The position numbers were made by a program, and so were the translations under genes. A DNA stretch of 64,000 nucleotides. Origin: Clostridia bacterium. Lineage in GTDB: Bacteria; Bacillota; Clostridia; Christensenellales; QALW01. This document shows positions 14,084 through 49,500 of the stretch, in pieces. Under the pieces are notes generated by a model, which was not told the DNA's origin, did not search any database, and was given only the letters and a program-made list of their open reading frames with translations. The stretch spans positions 605 to 64,604 of the forward strand of contig JAZRTX010000012.1 of assembly GCA_045652205.1 (NCBI GenBank), read 5' to 3'. Within the stretch, counting starts at the first letter, position 1, and each line of letters starts with the position of its first letter.

Positions 14084-16696
14084 ATGAAAGAGTATTTACT
14101 TTCAACCGAAGAAGTGTTAAAAAACACAAACAGCAATAAAGAAACAGGCTTAACAGAACAAAAAGCACAGGAATTATTGCAAAAGAACGGCCCTAACAAG
14201 CTTAAAGAACAAAAAAAGGATTCCTTAATTAAAAAGTTCTTTAAACAGCTTGCCGACCCTATGATAATAATTTTGCTTATCGCGGCAGCCGTTTCAGCTA
14301 TGACTGAAATTTTTGAAGGCAAATTTCCCACCGATGCAATTATTATTCTTGCAGTTGTTTTAATTAACACTGTTTTAGGTGTTTTTCAGGAATCAAAAGC
14401 CGAAAAAGCCATTGAAGCCCTGCAAGCTATGACTGCGGCACAAAGTAAAGTTATCCGTGATGGCAAGCTTTTGCACATAAAAAGTGAAGATCTTGTTGTT
14501 GGCGATATTATCGTGATTGAAGCAGGTGACGATATTCCTGCGGATGCACGTATTTTAGAAAGCGCTTCCTTAAAAGTTGAAGAAGCCGCTTTAACAGGCG
14601 AAAGTGTTCCTGTTGAAAAGCATAGTGACGCTTTAACAGGTGAAGTTTCATTAGGCGACCGAAAAAATATGGTTTATATGGGGTCAGCCTGTGTTTACGG
14701 CAGAGGCGTTTGCGTAGTTACCCAAACAGGAATGGATACCGAAATGGGTAAAATTGCTACCGCGCTTTCGCAGGCTGAAGACGGACAGACGCCCCTGCAG
14801 ATTAAACTTGCACAGTTATCTAAAATTTTAAGTTTTCTTGTTTTAGGTATTTGCGTTGTTGTTTTTGCCATCAATCTTTTAAGAATTGACTTTGGCTCCG
14901 GCGAAGTTTTAAAGGAAATTATTGAAACCTTTATGATTGCCGTTTCCTTGGCGGTTGCGGCTATTCCCGAAGGCTTGGCGGCAGTTGTTACAATCGTTTT
15001 ATCAATCGGTGTAACCAATATGTCCAAGCGCAGCGCAGTTATCCGCAAATTAACCGCAGTTGAAACCTTAGGTTGTGCGCAGGTTATCTGTTCAGATAAA
15101 ACAGGTACTCTTACACAAAACAAGATGACCGTTGTTAAAAGTTATACGTTGGCTGACGAAAACACACTTGCTACGTCCTTAATGATGTGCAACGATGCTA
15201 ATTTAGATGAAAACAACTTAGCTCAAGGTGAGCCTACCGAAGCGGCGTTAGTAAATTACGCTTATACGCTTGGTTTAGATAAACGAGTTTTAGACAGTAA
15301 TTATCCAAGAGTTTGCGAAGCGCCTTTTGATTCAATGCGTAAGATGATGAGCACCGTTCACAAAAGGGAAACGGATTTCATACAATACGTTAAAGGCGCC
15401 CCTGATGAACTTTTACAAAAGTGCAGTAAAATTCTTATAAATGGCGAAATTACCGCGCTTACAGATGAGCATCGCGCTGAAATTTTAAACAAGAACAAAG
15501 AGTTTGCTGATTCTGCATTACGCGTTTTAGCAGGCGCTATGAAAGAATACAACGAAAACCCTGATTCTTCTGACCCCAACGTGTTGGAACAGGATCTTAC
15601 CTTTATCGGACTTGTTGGTATGATTGACCCTGTTCGCCCTGAGGTTAAGCCCGCCATTGAGCTTTGTGAAAAAGCAGGCATCACCCCTGTAATGATTACA
15701 GGCGACCACAAGGATACCGCAGTTGCTATCGCAAAAGAACTTGGTATTATTAAAGATGCATCAGAAGCTTTAACAGGCAGAGAACTTGATAAAATTCCCG
15801 AAGACGAATTACTTGAAAACATCAACAAATATCATGTTTATGCCCGTGTTCAGCCTGAACACAAGGTTCGTATAGTTTCTGCCTGGAGAGAAAAAGGTAA
15901 CATTACCGCTATGACAGGTGACGGCGTTAACGATGCACCTTCAATTAAAAAGGCAGATATCGGCGTTGGTATGGGTATTACGGGAACAGACGTTACTAAA
16001 AACGTTGCTGATATGGTGCTTGCCGACGATAACTTTGCAACAATCGTTTCAGCCGTTGAAGAAGGCAGACGTATTTACGATAACATTCGTAAGGCAATGC
16101 AGTTCCTGCTTTCAGCAAACCTTGCAGAAGTTTTAACTATTTTTACTGCCACCTTAATCGGTTTTGAAGTGCTTGGCCCTGTTCATCTTTTATGGATTAA
16201 CCTTGTTACAGATACCTTCCCCGCAGTTGCATTAGGTATGGAACAAGCAGAACAAAACGTTATGAACCGCGCCCCCAGAAAAGCAAAGGAAGGCGTTTTT
16301 GCAGGCGGTCTTGGTTTTGATATTTTCTCTCAGGGCATTATAATTTCCGCTATTACTTTAATTGCTTACTTTGTAGGCTTAAAGATGGATGGCGCACAGC
16401 ACGGTATGACTATGGCTTTCGTTGCCCTTTCTATGACGGAAATTTTCCACGCGTTTAATATGCGCTCCCGTCGTGCTTCTGTGTTCAGCCTTAAAACACA
16501 CAATAAAACCTTATGGCTTTCAATGCTTTTTGCCTTAATTCTTACCGTAATCGTTTTATTTGTGCATCCCGTTGCAGCACTTTTTGGTTTTACCGAAATT
16601 ACTGTTACAGAATTTTTAATTGCTATGGCTATTGCTTTTAGCATTGTTCCGATTGTTGAAATTATTAAATTTATACAAAGAAAATTAAAAAGGTGA
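14084..16696 (+). CDS. P2-type cation-transporting ATPase (Ca2+/Mn2+)
   Basis: LTGES, IPEGL, DKTGTLT, MITGD, GDGVND. Confidence 0.96.
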   Translation: MKEYLLSTEEVLKNTNSNKETGLTEQKAQELLQKNGPNKLKEQKKDSLIKKFFKQLADPMIIILLIAAAVSAMTEIFEGKFPTDAIIILAVVLINTVLGVFQESKAEKAIEALQAMTAAQSKVIRDGKLLHIKSEDLVVGDIIVIEAGDDIPADARILESASLKVEEAALTGESVPVEKHSDALTGEVSLGDRKNMVYMGSACVYGRGVCVVTQTGMDTEMGKIATALSQAEDGQTPLQIKLAQLSKILSFLVLGICVVVFAINLLRIDFGSGEVLKEIIETFMIAVSLAVAAIPEGLAAVVTIVLSIGVTNMSKRSAVIRKLTAVETLGCAQVICSDKTGTLTQNKMTVVKSYTLADENTLATSLMMCNDANLDENNLAQGEPTEAALVNYAYTLGLDKRVLDSNYPRVCEAPFDSMRKMMSTVHKRETDFIQYVKGAPDELLQKCSKILINGEITALTDEHRAEILNKNKEFADSALRVLAGAMKEYNENPDSSDPNVLEQDLTFIGLVGMIDPVRPEVKPAIELCEKAGITPVMITGDHKDTAVAIAKELGIIKDASEALTGRELDKIPEDELLENINKYHVYARVQPEHKVRIVSAWREKGNITAMTGDGVNDAPSIKKADIGVGMGITGTDVTKNVADMVLADDNFATIVSAVEEGRRIYDNIRKAMQFLLSANLAEVLTIFTATLIGFEVLGPVHLLWINLVTDTFPAVALGMEQAEQNVMNRAPRKAKEGVFAGGLGFDIFSQGIIISAITLIAYFVGLKMDGAQHGMTMAFVALSMTEIFHAFNMRSRRASVFSLKTHNKTLWLSMLFALILTVIVLFVHPVAALFGFTEITVTEFLIAMAIAFSIVPIVEIIKFIQRKLKR

Positions 16697-24950: not shown

Positions 24951-25754
24951 ATGGATTTATCACGCCCTTGGCTTGATTATATGGAGCCTTTTAAAATTGC
25001 AGATAACCTTTATTTTGTAGGAACAATAGGTGGATCTTCCCACGTTATTGATACAGGCGAAGGCTTAATTATGCTTGATTCAGGATATCCCGAAACGTTA
25101 TATCAGGTGCTTTTTAATATGCAAAAAATGGGTTTAAACCCAATGGATATAAAATATATTATTCATTCCCATGGTCATTACGACCATCTTGGCGCAACAA
25201 AAGCGTTAAAGGAATTAACAAATGCTAAAACCTTTATTGCAAAGGAAGACGAGCTTTTAGCCAACGGCACTTTAAATTTAACCTGGGCAAACGAACTGGG
25301 CGTTGAATATACCCAAGGGTTTCAGCCTGACGTTTTATTAAATGATGGAGATATTATTAAATTAGGCAACACAGAAATTGAATGTGTTTTAACCCCCGGC
25401 CACACAAACGGCACAATGAGCTTCTTTTTTAACGTTTTTTACAAAAACAAAACCTACCTTGCAGGTATGCACGGGGGCGTAGGCTCAAACACAATGAAAA
25501 AGGAGTTTTTGGAAAAATATAATCTTCCCACTTCTTGCAGAACTGATTTTTTAGAAGGCTTAGAAAAGGTAAAAAACAAGCCTGTTGAAATCTTTTTAGG
25601 CAACCACACCTGGAACAATAAAACACAAGAAAAATTAAAAACCCTTTCCCCCGATTTTAACCCGTTTATAAACAAAAACGAGTGGAAAGAGTTTATAACA
25701 GAATGTAAAAACAAAGTGCTTAACTTAATTGAAAGCGAAAAGCCAACGGAATAG
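24951..25754 (+). CDS. MBL-fold hydrolase resembling subclass B3 metallo-beta-lactamases
   Basis: PFKIADNLYFVG, HGHYDH, TPGHT, GNH. Confidence 0.8.
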   Translation: MDLSRPWLDYMEPFKIADNLYFVGTIGGSSHVIDTGEGLIMLDSGYPETLYQVLFNMQKMGLNPMDIKYIIHSHGHYDHLGATKALKELTNAKTFIAKEDELLANGTLNLTWANELGVEYTQGFQPDVLLNDGDIIKLGNTEIECVLTPGHTNGTMSFFFNVFYKNKTYLAGMHGGVGSNTMKKEFLEKYNLPTSCRTDFLEGLEKVKNKPVEIFLGNHTWNNKTQEKLKTLSPDFNPFINKNEWKEFITECKNKVLNLIESEKPTE

Positions 25755-25777
25755 TACGACTTCTCATAAAAACGTTT

Positions 25778-25816
25778 AAAGCCGATAGATTCAAAAAACG
25801 AATCTATCGGCTTTTA
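25778..25816 (+). terminator. Intrinsic terminator
   Basis: AAAGCCGATAGATTC/GAATCTATCGGCTTT perfect stem. Confidence 0.8.
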
Positions 25817-25843
25817 TTATACGTAAAAATCCTAGTTCTTTCA

Positions 25844-26046
25844 AGTTATATTCCGACTTTGTCGGAGTGATATTATTGCCTTAAGGCAATAGTTTTATTG
25901 AAACCTTGCGGTTTCAGTGGTATTTTATTCGCCCATAAACTGCCGAAGGCAATACCACTTGGACAAGGTCCAAATACAACTACGAAGTAATACAACTCGC
26001 CGTAAGGCGAATAAAACTGGCGTTGTATCCTTACGGGTACAACGCC
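25844..26046. repeat. Symmetric array of 9-nt linkers and short hairpins (REP/MITE-like or structured RNA)
   Basis: 4x AGTnnTATT then 4x AATAnnACT, separated by perfect mini-hairpins. Confidence 0.85.
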
Positions 26047-26064
26047 TAACCGTTGGCTTTTTTA

Positions 26065-27453
26065 TTATTTAAAGAATTCACCCATTGCTAAATAGGTCAT
26101 ATACACATCTAATTTTGAAACAGTTTCATAGGGCGCGTGCATTGAAAGAACAGGTACGCCTAAATCAACTGTATCAATATCCATTGATGCAACGTACTGG
26201 GCAACTGTTCCGCCGCCGCCAATATCAACCTTGCCAAGCTCACCTGTTTGCCAAACGATATTTGCTGAATCAAGCATCTGCCTAATTTCAGCCATATATT
26301 CTGCAGAAGCATCATTTGAACCGCTTTTACCACGTGCGCCTGTATATTTTGTAATAACTACACCGTTATTTACAAAAGATGCATTTCTCTTTTCAAAAAC
26401 GTCCTGGAAGGTGGGGTCAACTGCCGCGTTAACGTCAGCAGAAAGGCACTGTGATTTTCTTAAAGCGTCCTGTGGCTCAACCCCTTGCATTCTTGCAATA
26501 TCACTGATAACGTGCAAAAGGAAATGTGAGTTAAGACCTGTGTTACCAACAGAGCCGATTTCTTCCTTATCCGCTAAAACGCAGATAGCAGTCCTTTTAG
26601 GAACTTTAATATCCATTAACGCCATTAAGGAAGGATATGCGCAAACCCTGTCATCGTGGCCGTAAGATCCGATTAACGCCCTATCAAAGCCAACGTCCTG
26701 TGCTTTAAAACTTGGAACGATTTCAAGTTCTGCAGAAAGGAAATCGCTTTCGGTAACACCGTATTTTTCATAAAGAATATTTAAAATATTTAATTTAACA
26801 AGTTCACTGCCTTCATCTGATTTAAAGGGGAAACTGCCAACTAAAACGTTTAATTCTTCACCTTTAATACCTTCGTTTAAGGTGCGCTTGTTTTGTTCGC
26901 TTGCTAAATGGGGTAAAAGGTCGTTAATTACAAAAACGGGATCAGATGCATCTTCACCGATTTTCACGTTTACTGTTTCACCGTTCTTTTTAACAAAAAC
27001 ACCGTGAAGCGCCAAAGGAATTGTTGCCCACTGATATTTTCTTACACCGCCATAATAATGGGTTTTAAAAAGCGCAAGGTCAATTTCTTCATAAAGGGGA
27101 TTTGGTTTAAGGTCAAGCCTTGGTGAATCAATATGTGCCGCGCCGATTCGTACACCGTTTTCTACGCTTTCTTCACCAACAACAACGAAAACTGCGCTCT
27201 TTTTGCGGTTATTGATATAGTATCTATCACCTTTAGCGTACTTTTTGCCCTTTTCGTACTGAGTAAAGCCGTTTTCTTCTGCAATCTTAATTGCTTCTGT
27301 TACTGCTTCCCTTTCGGTTTTTGCATTATCAAGAAACTTCTTATAATCTTCGCAAAAAGCATAGGCTTCTTTTATCTGTTCTTCCGTTGCCTTTTTTAAG
27401 CCGTTTCTTGTATCAGAAAAAAGTTTTTCTTTTAATTCTTTTACGTCTGCCAT
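26065..27453 (-). CDS. M18 family aminopeptidase
   Basis: AHIDSPRL, GHDDR, KEEIGS, LSMHAP. Confidence 0.95.
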   Translation of the reverse strand: MADVKELKEKLFSDTRNGLKKATEEQIKEAYAFCEDYKKFLDNAKTEREAVTEAIKIAEENGFTQYEKGKKYAKGDRYYINNRKKSAVFVVVGEESVENGVRIGAAHIDSPRLDLKPNPLYEEIDLALFKTHYYGGVRKYQWATIPLALHGVFVKKNGETVNVKIGEDASDPVFVINDLLPHLASEQNKRTLNEGIKGEELNVLVGSFPFKSDEGSELVKLNILNILYEKYGVTESDFLSAELEIVPSFKAQDVGFDRALIGSYGHDDRVCAYPSLMALMDIKVPKRTAICVLADKEEIGSVGNTGLNSHFLLHVISDIARMQGVEPQDALRKSQCLSADVNAAVDPTFQDVFEKRNASFVNNGVVITKYTGARGKSGSNDASAEYMAEIRQMLDSANIVWQTGELGKVDIGGGGTVAQYVASMDIDTVDLGVPVLSMHAPYETVSKLDVYMTYLAMGEFFK

Positions 27454-41013: not shown

Positions 41014-42162
41014 CTATTCTTCATCCAAAACTTCTTTTCTGGCAAATTTCTCATAGGTTCCCACTTCGGCAAAATCAACCGAATATCTTGATTCTCCAAG
41101 TTTTGTAAAAACAACACAATCAATGCCAAAGATTTTAAGCATTTCATATGTTAAAAGCGTTTTTTCTGGCAATTCAAACACTTTTCGCAATAACCACTCA
41201 CCCAAAACTTTATTGGGATTGCTCATTATTGCCTTGTTGTCTTGTTGACACACCTTTGCCGAAATTATAGTTCCATCTGGTAGCAACAACTCAAAATTTT
41301 GGTCACGATTCGGAAAAAATCCTGCATATCTTTCTCTATCTTCGGCCGGAAATGGAATGTAGATTTCGTTTGCATTCCTTTTTCTGCCACTTGCATTCCA
41401 TTGATTTAAGCCACTTTTGGGTGCAACAAATTTTGTGCCGTTGGGTTTTGTAGAATACAAACGCAAACAAGCCTTATTTGTTGTATCAAAACTACCTTCT
41501 TGATTTGTAACGCTTTGAGTAATATTTTCCGCTAAACCCATCAAATAAATGTAGGGGTCATCAAGTATATCTACTGTAAACGAATCTAAAAGCTCCATAT
41601 CATCAAAAATCATATAGAGAGTATTTTTTGACATGCTAAAATGATAAACGTGTTTCCCATCGGTAAAATACGTGTTATTTATATTGCCACGTTCGGGTAA
41701 TAAAGTTATGTTTTCAATATCTATAGGCTCAAAAACATGTTCAAATATTTGCATCGTATTAGGAATACGTTTAACTATATGATAAATAAGATTATCTATG
41801 CCGTGTAAATTCTTTGTTATGCGAATACGTTCATTTCTAAATTCCGAAACTTTTTTTGCCAAATCTAGACCTGTTAATAGGCTTAACTTTTCTCTCAAAC
41901 TGTCAAACTCTGCAACCTTTTGATCATTATTTCCCATCCAAGTTTTTAAACCTACGCCTATTTTACCTTTTTTAGCATCGGCAGAACAATCGCTACGAGA
42001 TAAATTTTCGGCATCAAAGTATTTACAAAAAACATTTTCTTGAACTCTATATGGTAAGTAAGGACAAGCATTATCTGAAAATAAGCGTGTTAATTTACCA
42101 ATTATACCAAGCATTTGTTTATACTGTTGTTTTTGTTCTTCAGATTGCAAATCGTAAAACAT
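41014..42162 (-). CDS. Putative restriction endonuclease, NgoFVII-like C-terminal DNA-binding domain
   Basis: Adjacent to MTase; N-terminal EN...D...GLKT nuclease-like motif; KSGLNQWN...GRKR..EIYIP. Confidence 0.72.
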   Translation of the reverse strand: MFYDLQSEEQKQQYKQMLGIIGKLTRLFSDNACPYLPYRVQENVFCKYFDAENLSRSDCSADAKKGKIGVGLKTWMGNNDQKVAEFDSLREKLSLLTGLDLAKKVSEFRNERIRITKNLHGIDNLIYHIVKRIPNTMQIFEHVFEPIDIENITLLPERGNINNTYFTDGKHVYHFSMSKNTLYMIFDDMELLDSFTVDILDDPYIYLMGLAENITQSVTNQEGSFDTTNKACLRLYSTKPNGTKFVAPKSGLNQWNASGRKRNANEIYIPFPAEDRERYAGFFPNRDQNFELLLPDGTIISAKVCQQDNKAIMSNPNKVLGEWLLRKVFELPEKTLLTYEMLKIFGIDCVVFTKLGESRYSVDFAEVGTYEKFARKEVLDEE

Positions 42163-46577: not shown

Positions 46578-49500
46578 TTATGCGTTTACTGCTTCAGCTT
46601 CAACAGTTTCTTCTGAAAGTGCTTCAACTTCTGCTTCTGCATTTTTGCGGATAACGTTAATATCAATATCCTTATATCTCTTTACGCCTGTACCTGCAGG
46701 GATAAGCTTACCGATACATACGCATTCTTTAAGACCAAGAAGCGGGTCAATCTTGCCCTTAATAGCGGCATCTGTAAGAACCCTTGTGGTTTCCTGGAAG
46801 GATGCGGCTGAAAGGAATGATTCAGTTGCAAGGGCAGCCTTTGTAATACCAAGAAGGATTCTACGGCTTGTAGCAGGAATACCGCCTGCAAGACGGGTTT
46901 CCTCGTTAACCTTTTCAACCTTAAAGATATCAACAACGTCGCCGGGAAGAAGATCAGTATCGCCCGCATCTTCAATACGAACTTTACGAAGCATCTGGCG
47001 AACAATTAACTCAATATGCTTATCAGCAATATCAACGCCCTGTACCTTATAAACAGTCTGAACCTCTTTGAGCATATAATCCTGAAGTGGAACTACACCC
47101 TTAATTTTAAGTAAATCGTGGGGGTTTACTGAACCCTTTGTAAGCTCCTGACCAACTTCAACCTGCTGACCTTCTTCAACAGCAAGGTGAGCATTGTAAG
47201 GAAGGGGATAGTTCTTTTCTTCGCCATCAGAGGTAACGATGCTTACGCTACCCTTACCGCGAATATTGTTAACTTCAACCTTACCTGAAACGTCAGAAAG
47301 AATTGCAAGTCCTTTTGGCTTACGTGCTTCAAAGATTTCTTCAACACGGGGAAGACCCTGTGTAATATCTGTACCTGCAACACCACCGGTGTGGAAGGTT
47401 CTCATTGTAAGCTGAGTACCGGGTTCACCGATTGACTGTGCTGCGATAATACCAACAGCTTCACCGATAGCAACGGGCTTATTGTTTGAAAGGTCAGCAC
47501 CGTAGCACTTAGCGCAAACACCGTGTTCGCAACGACAGGTGAAGATTGAACGGATCATAACCTTTGTTCTGCCTAAGCCACCCTTTTCTTTGGGAAGGGT
47601 AATCTTATCAGCAATTTCATCGGTTACTAATGTACCGTCAGTAAACACAACGTTGCCGTTTTCGTCTACAATATCTTCAGCAAGTGTTCTGTTCTTGATA
47701 CGTTCTGCAACGGTTTCAATAACTGAACCATCGTGAATAATATCTTCAACGTAAACACCGTTAGGTGTGTTGATTGATGAATGATTCTGATGGCAATCTT
47801 CTTCACGAACGATAACGTCCTGACAAACGTCAACAAGACGTCTTGTAAGGTAACCGGAGTCAGCTGTACGGAGAGCCGTATCAGCAAGACCTTTACGTGT
47901 TCCGTGTGAAGACATGAAGAAGTCAATAATTGTAAGACCTTCACGGAAGTTTGCCTTAACGGGAATTTCAATAGTTCTACCTGATGGGTCAGCCATCAAG
48001 CCACGCATACCTGCAAGCTGTGTAATCTGTGATTTGTTACCACGAGCACCGGATACAGCCATCATGTTGATGGGGTTGAACTTATCAAGACCGTTCATAA
48101 GCTGAACTGTAACGTCGTCCTTGGCGATACGCCAGGTATCAATAACTGCACGGTATCTTTCTTCTTCGGAATAGAATCCGCGTTTTGCCAAATCGTTGAT
48201 TTTTGCAACGTGCGCATCTGCTTTTTCAAGGATTTCCTTTTTAGCCTTAGGAATAACAGCATCCTTAACACCAACGGTAATTGCACCGCGGGTTGCATAC
48301 TGGAAGCCCTGTGCCTTAATAGCGTCAAGCATCTGTGCAGTAATTGCTTCACCGTGAACGGTGTAGCACTTATAAACAACCTTGTTAAGTGATTTCTTAT
48401 CAATTAAGAAGCCGATTTCAAGGTCAAATTCGTGTTCGGGATCGTTTCTGTCAACAAAGCCGATATCCTGTGGAACTGCGCGGTTAAAGATAATCTTACC
48501 AACGGTTGTCTGAATAATCTTTGAACGTGTTACACCGTTTTCGTCAGTCTTTGACATACGAACGTTTGTCATTGACTGTAAGCCAAGATTGCCCATTTCG
48601 TAAGCAAGAACTGCTTCTTCAGGTGAAGAGAAAGTTCTGTCTAACGCAGGCTTATCATCGCGAACGATAGTAAGATAGTATGAACCGATAATCATATCCT
48701 GTGTGGGTACAACTACGGGTCTGCCGTCAGCAGGTTTAAGAATATTGTTTTCAGCAAGCATTAAGAAACGTGCTTCAGCCTGTGCTTCTACTGAAAGTGG
48801 AACGTGGCAGGGCATCTGGTCGCCGTCAAAGTCAGCGTTAAATGCGGTACAAACCAATGGGTGTAATTTAATTGCACGGCCATCAACAAGTACAGGTTCA
48901 AATGCCTGGATACCAAGGCGGTGAAGTGTAGGAGCACGGTTTAAAAGAACGGGATGACCCTGAATAACTTCTTCTAAAACGTCCCAAACCTCAGCAGTAC
49001 CTCTTTCAATAAGACGCTTTGCGCCACGGATATTCTGTGCAAGGTTTAATTCAACAAGGCGCTTCATAACGAAGGGCTTGAAAAGTTCAATAGCCATTTC
49101 CTTAGGAAGACCGCACTGATGCATTTTAAGTTCAGGACCAACAACGATAACTGAACGGCCTGAATAGTCAACACGCTTACCTAAAAGGTTCTGACGGAAA
49201 CGACCCTGCTTACCGCGAAGCATATCTGAAAGTGATTTTAACGGACGGTTGCCGGGGCCTGTAACAGGGCGACCGCGGCGGCCGTTATCAATTAAAGCGT
49301 CAACAGCTTCCTGAAGCATACGCTTTTCGTTTCTGATAATAATATCAGGTGCGCTTAATTCAAGAAGGCGTTTAAGACGGTTGTTACGGTTAATTACACG
49401 GCGATAAAGATCGTTAAGATCACTTGAAGCAAATCTGCCGCCATCAAGCTGTACCATGGGGCGAATTTCCGGTGGGATAACAGGAACAACGTCCATAATC

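Follow-up and report, generated by a model that had tools for sequence, protein, structure and literature searches.

A Gut-1-related hairpin comb in the loop of a predicted bidirectional terminator of an uncultured gut Clostridia bacterium

Described systems and the comb locus

The motif Gut-1 (Rfam RF01706) was rated as certainly RNA, with the human gut as its only recorded source and no assigned function (Weinberg et al., 2010; PMC2864571); the main text and seed alignment of that publication contain no function, host, mobility or gene link. After the discovery paper, Gut-1 was found in the literature only in a 2026 benchmark, with no later functional work, and no paper was found that links it to mobility or to the protein family PF05635; the per-motif supplement of Weinberg et al. 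(2010), which lay outside the search, may bear on this. A comb of short hairpins related to Gut-1 was analyzed at positions 25844-26046 of a 64,000-nt stretch (the window) of contig JAZRTX010000012.1, from the Clostridia bacterium assembly GCA_045652205.1. The comb elements resemble Gut-1 in their short hairpins, GUGAAAU/GUGAUAU-type linkers, start hairpin on the word CAGUUAUAUUCGCC and presence in gut metagenomes, and differ in that the window copy scores below the Rfam cut-off and has variable linkers, and in that the Rfam model covers one half only, without the long-range X:X' helix. Window positions 25751-26046 are likely to be a copy, diverged and without a gene, of a mobile hairpin-comb cassette that occurs in multiple copies in uncultured gut Clostridia.

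The Coxiella burnetii intervening sequence (IVS), with its S23p open reading frame (ORF), is described as a selfish element in helix 45 of the 23S rRNA that is excised by RNase III (PMC4990558). The comb would share with such IVS the form of a small selfish insert in a host hairpin, and related comb copies carry a gene of PF05635/TIGR02436. Unlike an IVS in a 23S rRNA helix, the comb sits in a terminator loop between protein genes, with related copies behind tRNA genes; the window copy has no ORF, and its arms are combs of side hairpins, not one long stem. Proteins of PF05635 are described as uncharacterized, some being encoded in 23S rRNA IVS, and as resembling Avd of the diversity-generating retroelements (PMC10053308). 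By that resemblance, the gene linked to the combs may be a candidate nucleic-acid-binding partner; it differs from Avd in that neither a reverse transcriptase nor template or variable repeats were found beside the PF05635 genes here.

Repetitive extragenic palindromes (REP) and bacterial interspersed mosaic elements (BIME), with the REP-associated tyrosine transposase (RAYT), are intergenic, multi-copy palindromes in direct and inverted order near gene ends, and are thought to act as hairpins of single-stranded DNA (ssDNA). The comb copies are likewise intergenic, multi-copy and often inverted, but REP hairpins are of one sequence, whereas combs keep their linkers, vary their hairpins and come without a Y1 transposase. 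[quoted passage not shown] The BOX elements of Streptococcus pneumoniae are, as described (PMC3049150), similarly small, gene-less and modular, with a variable number of units (0-10 in combs). From both, combs differ in having no terminal inverted repeats or target duplication, and in their target, which is a hairpin loop or the 3' end of a tRNA gene.

Empty sites and the terminator target

The comb array lies in the gap between two convergent genes, for a hydrolase (+) and an aminopeptidase (-) (Table 1). In a sister species (genome G006; aminopeptidase 94% identical) the same convergent pair is separated only by AAAAACCAGCGG-ATTAA-CCGCTGGCTTTTTT, a plain bidirectional terminator, and the BLAST pieces abut there without window 25754-26046. 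In a metagenome contig from run X1 (left side 148/148 identical), a single T separates window positions 25750 and 26047, the 296 bases of the insert being missing, and a contig from run X7 begins at 26047, preceded by GAAAAGCCAACGGAT, with the same empty junction. Both empty alleles carry the window's own terminator arm sequence. The filled and empty alleles show the element inserted in the predicted apical loop of a bidirectional terminator common to the two genes, which very close strains and the sister species retain uninterrupted. At the junction (window 25749-25754) the hydrolase gene ends in GAA TAG, vs. GAT TAA in the empty alleles; relative to these, its C-terminal residue is changed by the insertion from Asp to Glu and its stop codon from TAA to TAG. 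Among public sequencing runs, none was near-identical to the stretch (best word share 0.32).

The window belongs to a draft genome (G000; 1.68 Mb, 41 contigs, completeness 89.8%), which contains two subtypes of comb: A, with GTGAAAT linkers, and B, with GTGATAT-type linkers. Subtype B comprises four copies, namely the window copy and those at C1:31986, C38:18125 and C18:117613 (contig:position). All four are bounded by inverted arms of 8-12 nt, whose sequences are unrelated between copies. Empty orthologues of the other three were found in G006 (C1), in G011 and G006 (C38) and in G011 (C18), where the intact arms form terminator hairpins with 4-8-nt loops. This gives five empty orthologous sites (G006, G011) for four loci, plus the two metagenome alleles; as in IVS-type insertion, all four copies split terminator hairpins that are intact at the empty sites, and leave the host arms in place. 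Insert lengths range from 293 to 356 bp, and full-length homologues (69-80% identity) were found at other loci in relatives. As in MITEs, many copies are combined with filled/empty site polymorphism. The original prediction had offered a non-autonomous mobile element, and had excluded CRISPR; both statements stand, the former on the empty sites in relatives and the multiple copies per genome.

Table 1. Features of the comb locus in window coordinates.
Feature	Position	Strand	Basis
Left flanking gene, metallo-beta-lactamase-fold hydrolase	24951..25754	+	ORF list; Pfam PF00753, E 8.7e-19
Split host bidirectional terminator, 5' arm AAAAGCCAACGG	25738..25749		12-nt inverted match with 26050-26061; intact hairpin in G006 and X1, X7 contigs
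Inserted element, about 293-296 bp	25751..26046		Missing at G006 orthologous site and in two metagenome contigs
Terminator-like hairpin within insert, 16 pairs	25778..25814		+: 3' arm runs into TTTTATTAT (sequence); -: then AAACGTTTTT (terminator scan)
Promoter-like site TTGAAA-17-TATAAT (11/12), outward from comb	25816..25844	-	Promoter scan; hairpin 25814-25778 directly after
Array 2: four AGTNNTATT linkers, hairpins 25853-25865, 25875-25890, 25900-25915	25844..25924	+	Gut-1 18.4 bits; covarying hairpins in 22 relatives
X' in core, GGCGAATAAAA on -	25923..25933	-	Partner of X at 26006-26016; helix columns 4-14 with 94-104
Core hairpin TGCC-GAA-GGCA	25941..25951		3/4 pairs change on both sides among 22 relatives
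Array 1: four linkers, hairpins 25959-25973, 25981-25989, 25997-26010	25951..26018	-	Gut-1 31.1 bits; half matching the Rfam Gut-1 model
X, TTTTATTCGCC on -	26006..26016	-	Pairs locally (5' arm, first hairpin) or long-range with X'
Terminal hairpin P0, closing stem GGCGTTGTA...TACAACGCC	26019..26046		Sequence; on - then AGTTTTATT
Split host bidirectional terminator, 3' arm CCGTTGGCTTTT	26050..26061		Pairs with 25738-25749
Right flanking gene, M18 aminopeptidase	26065..27453	-	ORF list; Pfam PF02127, E 8.6e-88

Several points weigh against a mobile cassette. No terminal inverted repeats or consistent target duplication, as expected of a MITE, were found at the subtype-B junctions, which differ by 1-4 A/T-rich bases (none in one copy). 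No transposase that could serve as an autonomous partner was found, PF01797 and PF07282 being the families searched; a mobilizing gene may be unassembled in the draft genome. Each empty site could in principle represent a precise deletion. The ends of the subtype-B copies consist of hairpin P0, with a similar second hairpin in one of the four (the C1 copy), and the ORFs inside or beside copies encode a four-helix-bundle protein, a DUF4304 protein and one protein without a family.

Movement as ssDNA by a Y1 HUH transposase that recognizes hairpins, as in REP/BIME-like or IS200/IS605-derived elements (similar to palindrome-associated transposable elements), would account for the hairpins at both ends of some copies (C1), the lack of a clear target duplication, loops of a kind that is stable in DNA, and the intergenic, multiple and often inverted copies. 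We consider it very improbable. The Y1 family PF01797 had 0 matches in G000, G002, G008 and G024, which have 21-30 Gut-1 matches each, and was present in G010, which has none, with no correlation to copy number; PF07282 (TnpB) was found in 0/25 family genomes; and hairpins that vary between constant linkers are the reverse of REP. The HUH transposase guessed at in the original prediction was not recovered in G000 or in the three other Gut-1-rich genomes.

Terminator-like sites numbered 6 in 500 bp, vs. 0.5 in shuffles, and included three comb hairpins on the + strand and one on the - strand; P0 was not called by the scan, its loop being longer than 8 bases. The hairpin at 25778-25814 with TTTTATTAT would now terminate the hydrolase gene, and P0 with AGTTTTATT the aminopeptidase gene, probably as a replacement terminator. 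With its own hairpin and T-run on each side, the insert would replace the terminator that it splits, and may be tolerated for that reason; its compact fold may also hold the two old terminator arms together on both strands. Outward promoters occur at the same end of related copies, of the TGnTATAAT type beyond array 2 in subtype A. A strict scan past array 2 returned outward promoters in 8/39 elements, vs. 1/39 on the inward strand and 1.33 in shuffles, an enrichment that is suggestive only (because the -35 criterion was too stringent to suit TTGCNC boxes).

The density of terminator-like sites would also suit a two-way transcription insulator kept by the host, in which each hairpin with its U-rich linker forms a weak terminator and the facing arrays keep transcription from running through between genes in convergent or tandem order. 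Each array meets incoming transcription in the linker-sense direction, and copies sit between a terminator and the next promoter. We regard this as an unlikely primary role: U-richness is not a feature of the commoner linker, GTGAAAT; at these sites sister strains get by well with just one plain terminator; and both the spread of copies and their mirrored GNA/GNRA loops (see below) would be left unexplained. Insulation is compatible with a mobile cassette, as the reason why copies are tolerated.

Comb anatomy, Gut-1 membership and strand signal

The AGTNNTATT linkers lie on the + strand at 25844, 25866, 25891 and 25916 and on the - strand at 25951, 25973, 25989 and 26010, with a linker-to-linker spacing of 16-25 bp. 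Eight of the 18 matches in the window crowd into 175 bp, against an expectation of 0.04 (shuffle mean 14.53 per window; Poisson 1.5e-16). The + half contains the perfect hairpins CCGAC-TTT-GTCGG, ATTGCC-TTAA-GGCAAT and GAAACC-TTGC-GGTTTC, and the core and second half contain TGCC-GAA-GGCA, TGGAC-AAG-GTCCA, AC-GAA-GT and CGCC-GTAA-GGCG. Arrays 1 and 2 use the same GTNNTAT-type linkers (GTTGTAT, GTGGTAT and GTTTTAT in the window copy), inverted relative to each other. On the minus strand the order is P0, X, array 1, core hairpin, X', array 2, promoter-like site and terminator hairpin, and a strong hairpin stands at the P0 position in every related copy. The symmetric array was present at 25844-26046 as first described, with eight linkers, seven short perfect hairpins and a closing hairpin, and the proposed fold check agreed with it: both strands folded far better than shuffles (z = -8.5 and -8.1; 0/200 shuffles equal).

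The structure alignment comprised 22 subtype-B elements, to which at least 8 family genomes and 11 named metagenome-assembled genomes (MAGs) contributed. The seven local hairpins were 89-97% paired, and 31-33 pairs changed on both sides, which was reached by 0/500 shuffles (slid controls 8-16). The long-range X:X' helix was paired in 97% of cells, and its one variable position is AU in 12, UA in 8 and CG in 1 and unpaired in none; subtype-A copies have the same X:X' relation in quite different words. The claim that structure is selected while hairpin sequence varies is supported by these both-sided changes.

The original prediction had also proposed a rod closed by linker-linker pairing, since the innermost linkers of the window copy (25916, 25951) are exact complements. 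This did not hold as a conserved fold. The outer two linker helices were 79-81% paired, pairs 5/198 and 29/173 were unpaired in 17 and 16 of the 22 elements, and the innermost pair 69/107 was AU in 12, GU in 4, GC in 2 and other in 3; exact complementarity of the innermost linkers was common to only 2/22. In a cruder parse of 46 double arrays, in which the window's innermost pair was mis-parsed, 0/55 deviant linkers were mirrored by their partner.

Hairpins could be incidental if the comb were a double-stranded iteron array for a regulator, partition or nucleoid protein, a reading that would suit the conserved 7-9-nt word, its direct and inverted repeats and the adjoining promoter. It is hardly probable: linkers spaced at 16-25 bp are out of helical phase, the spacers stay perfect palindromes through compensatory changes that duplex binding would not need, and the loops show a strand bias.

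In the Rfam scan, Gut-1 matched window 25947-26019 (-) over the full model (1-77) with 31.1 bits (E 0.0013), and 25843-25908 (+) with 18.4 bits. Both are below the gathering cut-off of 50 bits, and the whole-genome search, with its 25 matches, did not return the window copy. Its layout is that of the model, with three hairpins and 7-nt linkers aligned in register. Six genomes of the genus (G006, G008, G011, G016, G018 and G000, contig C18) contain copies elsewhere to which it is 77-84% identical in DNA, and it aligns over its full length with 21 elements, some of which score 57-60 bits for Gut-1. By this sequence homology, the window element is classed as a diverged member of Gut-1. The family, which could not be named in the original prediction, thus has a name, and with it that part of the supposed novelty falls away. 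The Gut-1 seed alignment itself includes rows of subtype B, with GUGAUAU linkers and the 5' word CAGUUAUAUUCGCC.

Sixteen of the 25 G000 matches are above the cut-off, and 20 form 10 facing pairs about 20 bp apart, which indicates that the element is symmetric and about 180-200 bp long, with one of its halves described by the Rfam model. Among 40 related genomes, Gut-1 was found in 16/24 of the same family and in 0/16 from other families of the order, and counts ranged from 0 to 30 matches per genome inside one genus, with G010, G017 and G020 among its comb-free members. In a pattern scan in which each species was represented by one genome, most of the hits listed were in gut MAGs with the labels Clostridia, Eubacteriales, Oscillospiraceae, Acutalibacteraceae or Ruminococcus, with at least 33 double arrays by a crude test among the 122 loci listed. 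By the same test, 6/118 pattern loci on viral contigs were flagged as double arrays; one is a real Gut-1-type comb, and others are tandem repeats. The real one (IMG/VR contig, locus L264, ~290-500) lies on a 21-kb contig with a viral classification; this subtype-A double comb is complete and G+C-rich, and is followed by two simple tandem repeats.

Further variants were observed. Near the aminopeptidase gene of G008 (C2, ~92839-93000; locus L025), a one-directional array repeats a hairpin plus AGTGATATT in ~10 units, from which it follows that the unit number of combs can expand. In G000 (C32, 26295-26400), tRNA-Trp and a terminator are followed by a shorter comb-like stretch with other words (...GAACTAAGTGTGC ... 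GCACACTTAACTTCAC...), which may be a further subtype. A conserved module of ~90 nt (...GTCTTATACCGTAACAAGCAGGGAA, a variable hairpin, ...TTAGGAGAACCTAA and its own terminator) adjoins subtype-B copies in four other species (G008:C12, G006:C2, G006:C78, G012:C57 and G016:C37; loci L052, L054, L058, L061 and L057); it had no Rfam match at E 0.01 and was not found in G000, where a 13-nt module word gave noise only. At the last of these loci (L057, G016:C37:65795-68212), two inverted subtype-B copies flank the module and a 181-aa ORF in a layout that resembles a composite element. The ORF was considered as a transposase and rejected, as it matches DUF4304 instead (weakly, 23.3 bits).

Stem pairs and loops were compared between strands. 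Among 1006 stem pairs in 193 hairpins, 966 were Watson-Crick, 21 G:T, 15 A:C and 4 other; the lack of a G:U excess over A:C argues against a one-strand RNA, which should tolerate only G:U, and in that form against the protein-scaffolding RNA that the original prediction had named as an alternative. Among 164 family hairpins, GNRA accounted for 0/65 four-base loops on the linker-sense strand and 29/65 on the opposite strand. The commonest three-base loops on the opposite strand were GAA, AAA, GCA and GTA, and the purine fraction of loop letters on the linker-sense strand (the Rfam orientation) was 0.257. The noted preference of GNA/GNRA loops for opposite strands in the two halves thus holds across the family, and by this mirrored bias each strand bears stable loops in its 3' half. 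Three-base GNA loops closed by C-G are unusually stable in DNA. From the pair counts, the mirrored loops and the mobility of the copies, we infer that the comb is a fold used on both strands or as ssDNA, rather than a one-strand RNA.

Against this stands the classification of Gut-1 as RNA, both in Rfam, where it is curated as sRNA, and by its discoverers, whose table marks it 'Y', certainly RNA (Weinberg et al., 2010; PMC2864571). GNRA loops, here 29/65 on one strand, and a long-range helix that covaries are features typical of RNA as well, and covariation is strong in the hairpins and in that helix. The comb could be the gene of a structured non-coding RNA (Gut-1 proper) that is made from one strand and active in trans, for example as a sponge offering its repeated single-stranded linkers to an RNA-binding protein, and could merely sit on or move with mobile DNA. 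This is quite unlikely in view of the equal rarity of G:T and A:C pairs, of halves that are mirror images with favored loops on opposite strands, of the sole minus-strand promoter-like site of the window copy, which points out of the comb, and of the strain-specific insertion of the copies. In the only RNA run with related sequence (X17), 15 contigs were recovered, with one 111-nt piece on a related copy and a depth of 0-4.8 over the element.

tRNA-linked copies and the four-helix-bundle gene

Subtype-A copies stand directly behind tRNA genes. Six follow a tRNA called by ARAGORN, with the fixed junction CCA-G-A(5-6)-hairpin-T(5-6)-CAAC, and two come after the displaced copy of a tRNA 3' end; spacings differ at tRNA genes that lack the element. 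At a tRNA-Pro site the element is present in G008 and absent in G006 and G011. The flanks of two tRNA-linked copies are rearranged in G006 and G011, so that these are not clean empty sites.

The 3' ends of tRNA-Leu(tag) and tRNA-Glu(ctc) recur as 17-18-nt copies that directly precede the Gut-1 terminal hairpin, at a distance of ~190-230 nt downstream from the genuine gene; the loci are in G000 at C13 ~41740-42058 (L096:1133-1459), C41 ~14710-15016 and C30 76637-76960. The stretch between the tRNA and its displaced end contains a terminator and a conserved module with T-arm-like words, and a similar module follows tRNA-Pro(cgg). The displaced ends resemble the outcome of small integrations at the 3' ends of tRNAs.

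Genes of PF05635 (TIGR02436, four helix bundle protein, 100 bits) number exactly two in G000, and both start 69-73 nt beyond Gut-1 elements, behind tRNA-Pro and tRNA-Ala (chance ~1.6e-4). In a family-wide table, 13/45 PF05635 genes were no more than 600 nt from a Gut-1 match. Motif and gene occurred together in 15 genomes, the motif only in 2, the gene only in 3 and neither in 5 (Fisher p = 0.017, the related genomes being non-independent). Twelve further four-helix-bundle loci, most without an adjoining Gut-1 match, were inspected. Ten follow tRNA genes; 8/12 have the order tRNA, hairpin, double comb, promoter and gene, with the linker words GTGATGC, ACATCRTT, TATGTAAT and AATGATG, 2/12 have a long imperfect inverted repeat in place of the comb, and in 1/12 the gene lies between inverted heptad arrays. 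A copy enclosing a four-helix-bundle gene, as the original prediction had guessed, was found in 1/12 (L377; same genus, behind rplL), where a subtype-B array 1 stands on one side of the gene and an array 2 on the other. In the window copy, the end with the promoter and then the terminator is where such a gene would be.

Two further loci were observed. In G000 (C18, 47669-48980; L010, L369), tRNA-Ala is followed by a comb, a promoter, the four-helix-bundle gene (48003-48350), a 151-aa ORF (no NCBIfam match) and a second, truncated terminal hairpin with array 1; this direct repeat looks like the integration of a circle by recombination inside array 1. In G009 (C80:72926-73048; L023), the contig end carries part of a four-helix-bundle gene, ~800 nt downstream from the orthologous gene for the aminopeptidase.

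Such cassettes, like rRNA IVS, may settle in or beside stable hairpins. We tentatively suggest, as a speculative extension, that Gut-1 combs, the heptad repeats that bracket four-helix-bundle genes and the 23S rRNA IVS with ORFs could form one hairpin-homing mobile class, with terminator loops, tRNA trailers and rRNA helices as targets. The Avd-like four-helix-bundle protein would be its trans-acting factor, binding the linkers of the folded single strand and directing copy-and-paste insertion without a classical transposase. Against a link between the cassette and this gene family, no trace of a four-helix-bundle ORF was detected in the window copy by tblastn or blastn, or in its three sister copies, and the tie of the window copy to that family comes through common architecture and related copies only. 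G008 has 30 Gut-1 matches and one four-helix-bundle gene, and G022 has 9 matches and none. If the suggestion were true, the window copy would be a satellite dependent on the two four-helix-bundle genes elsewhere in G000.

The Gut-1 motif itself was known, and Rfam has listed it since 2010 as an RNA whose function and gut source organisms are unknown; the filled and empty alleles, the terminator-loop target, the covariation of the hairpins and of the X:X' helix, and the strand signal are new. The alleles show the motif to be half of a mobile cassette that settles in what are predicted to be hairpin loops, and Gut-1 is tied to a large, equally unexplained family of four-helix-bundle proteins. 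The covariation of a mobile palindromic element can pass for that of an RNA gene, which calls for caution. Two questions are thereby made experimentally approachable, namely what Gut-1 is and what role the proteins of rRNA intervening sequences have.

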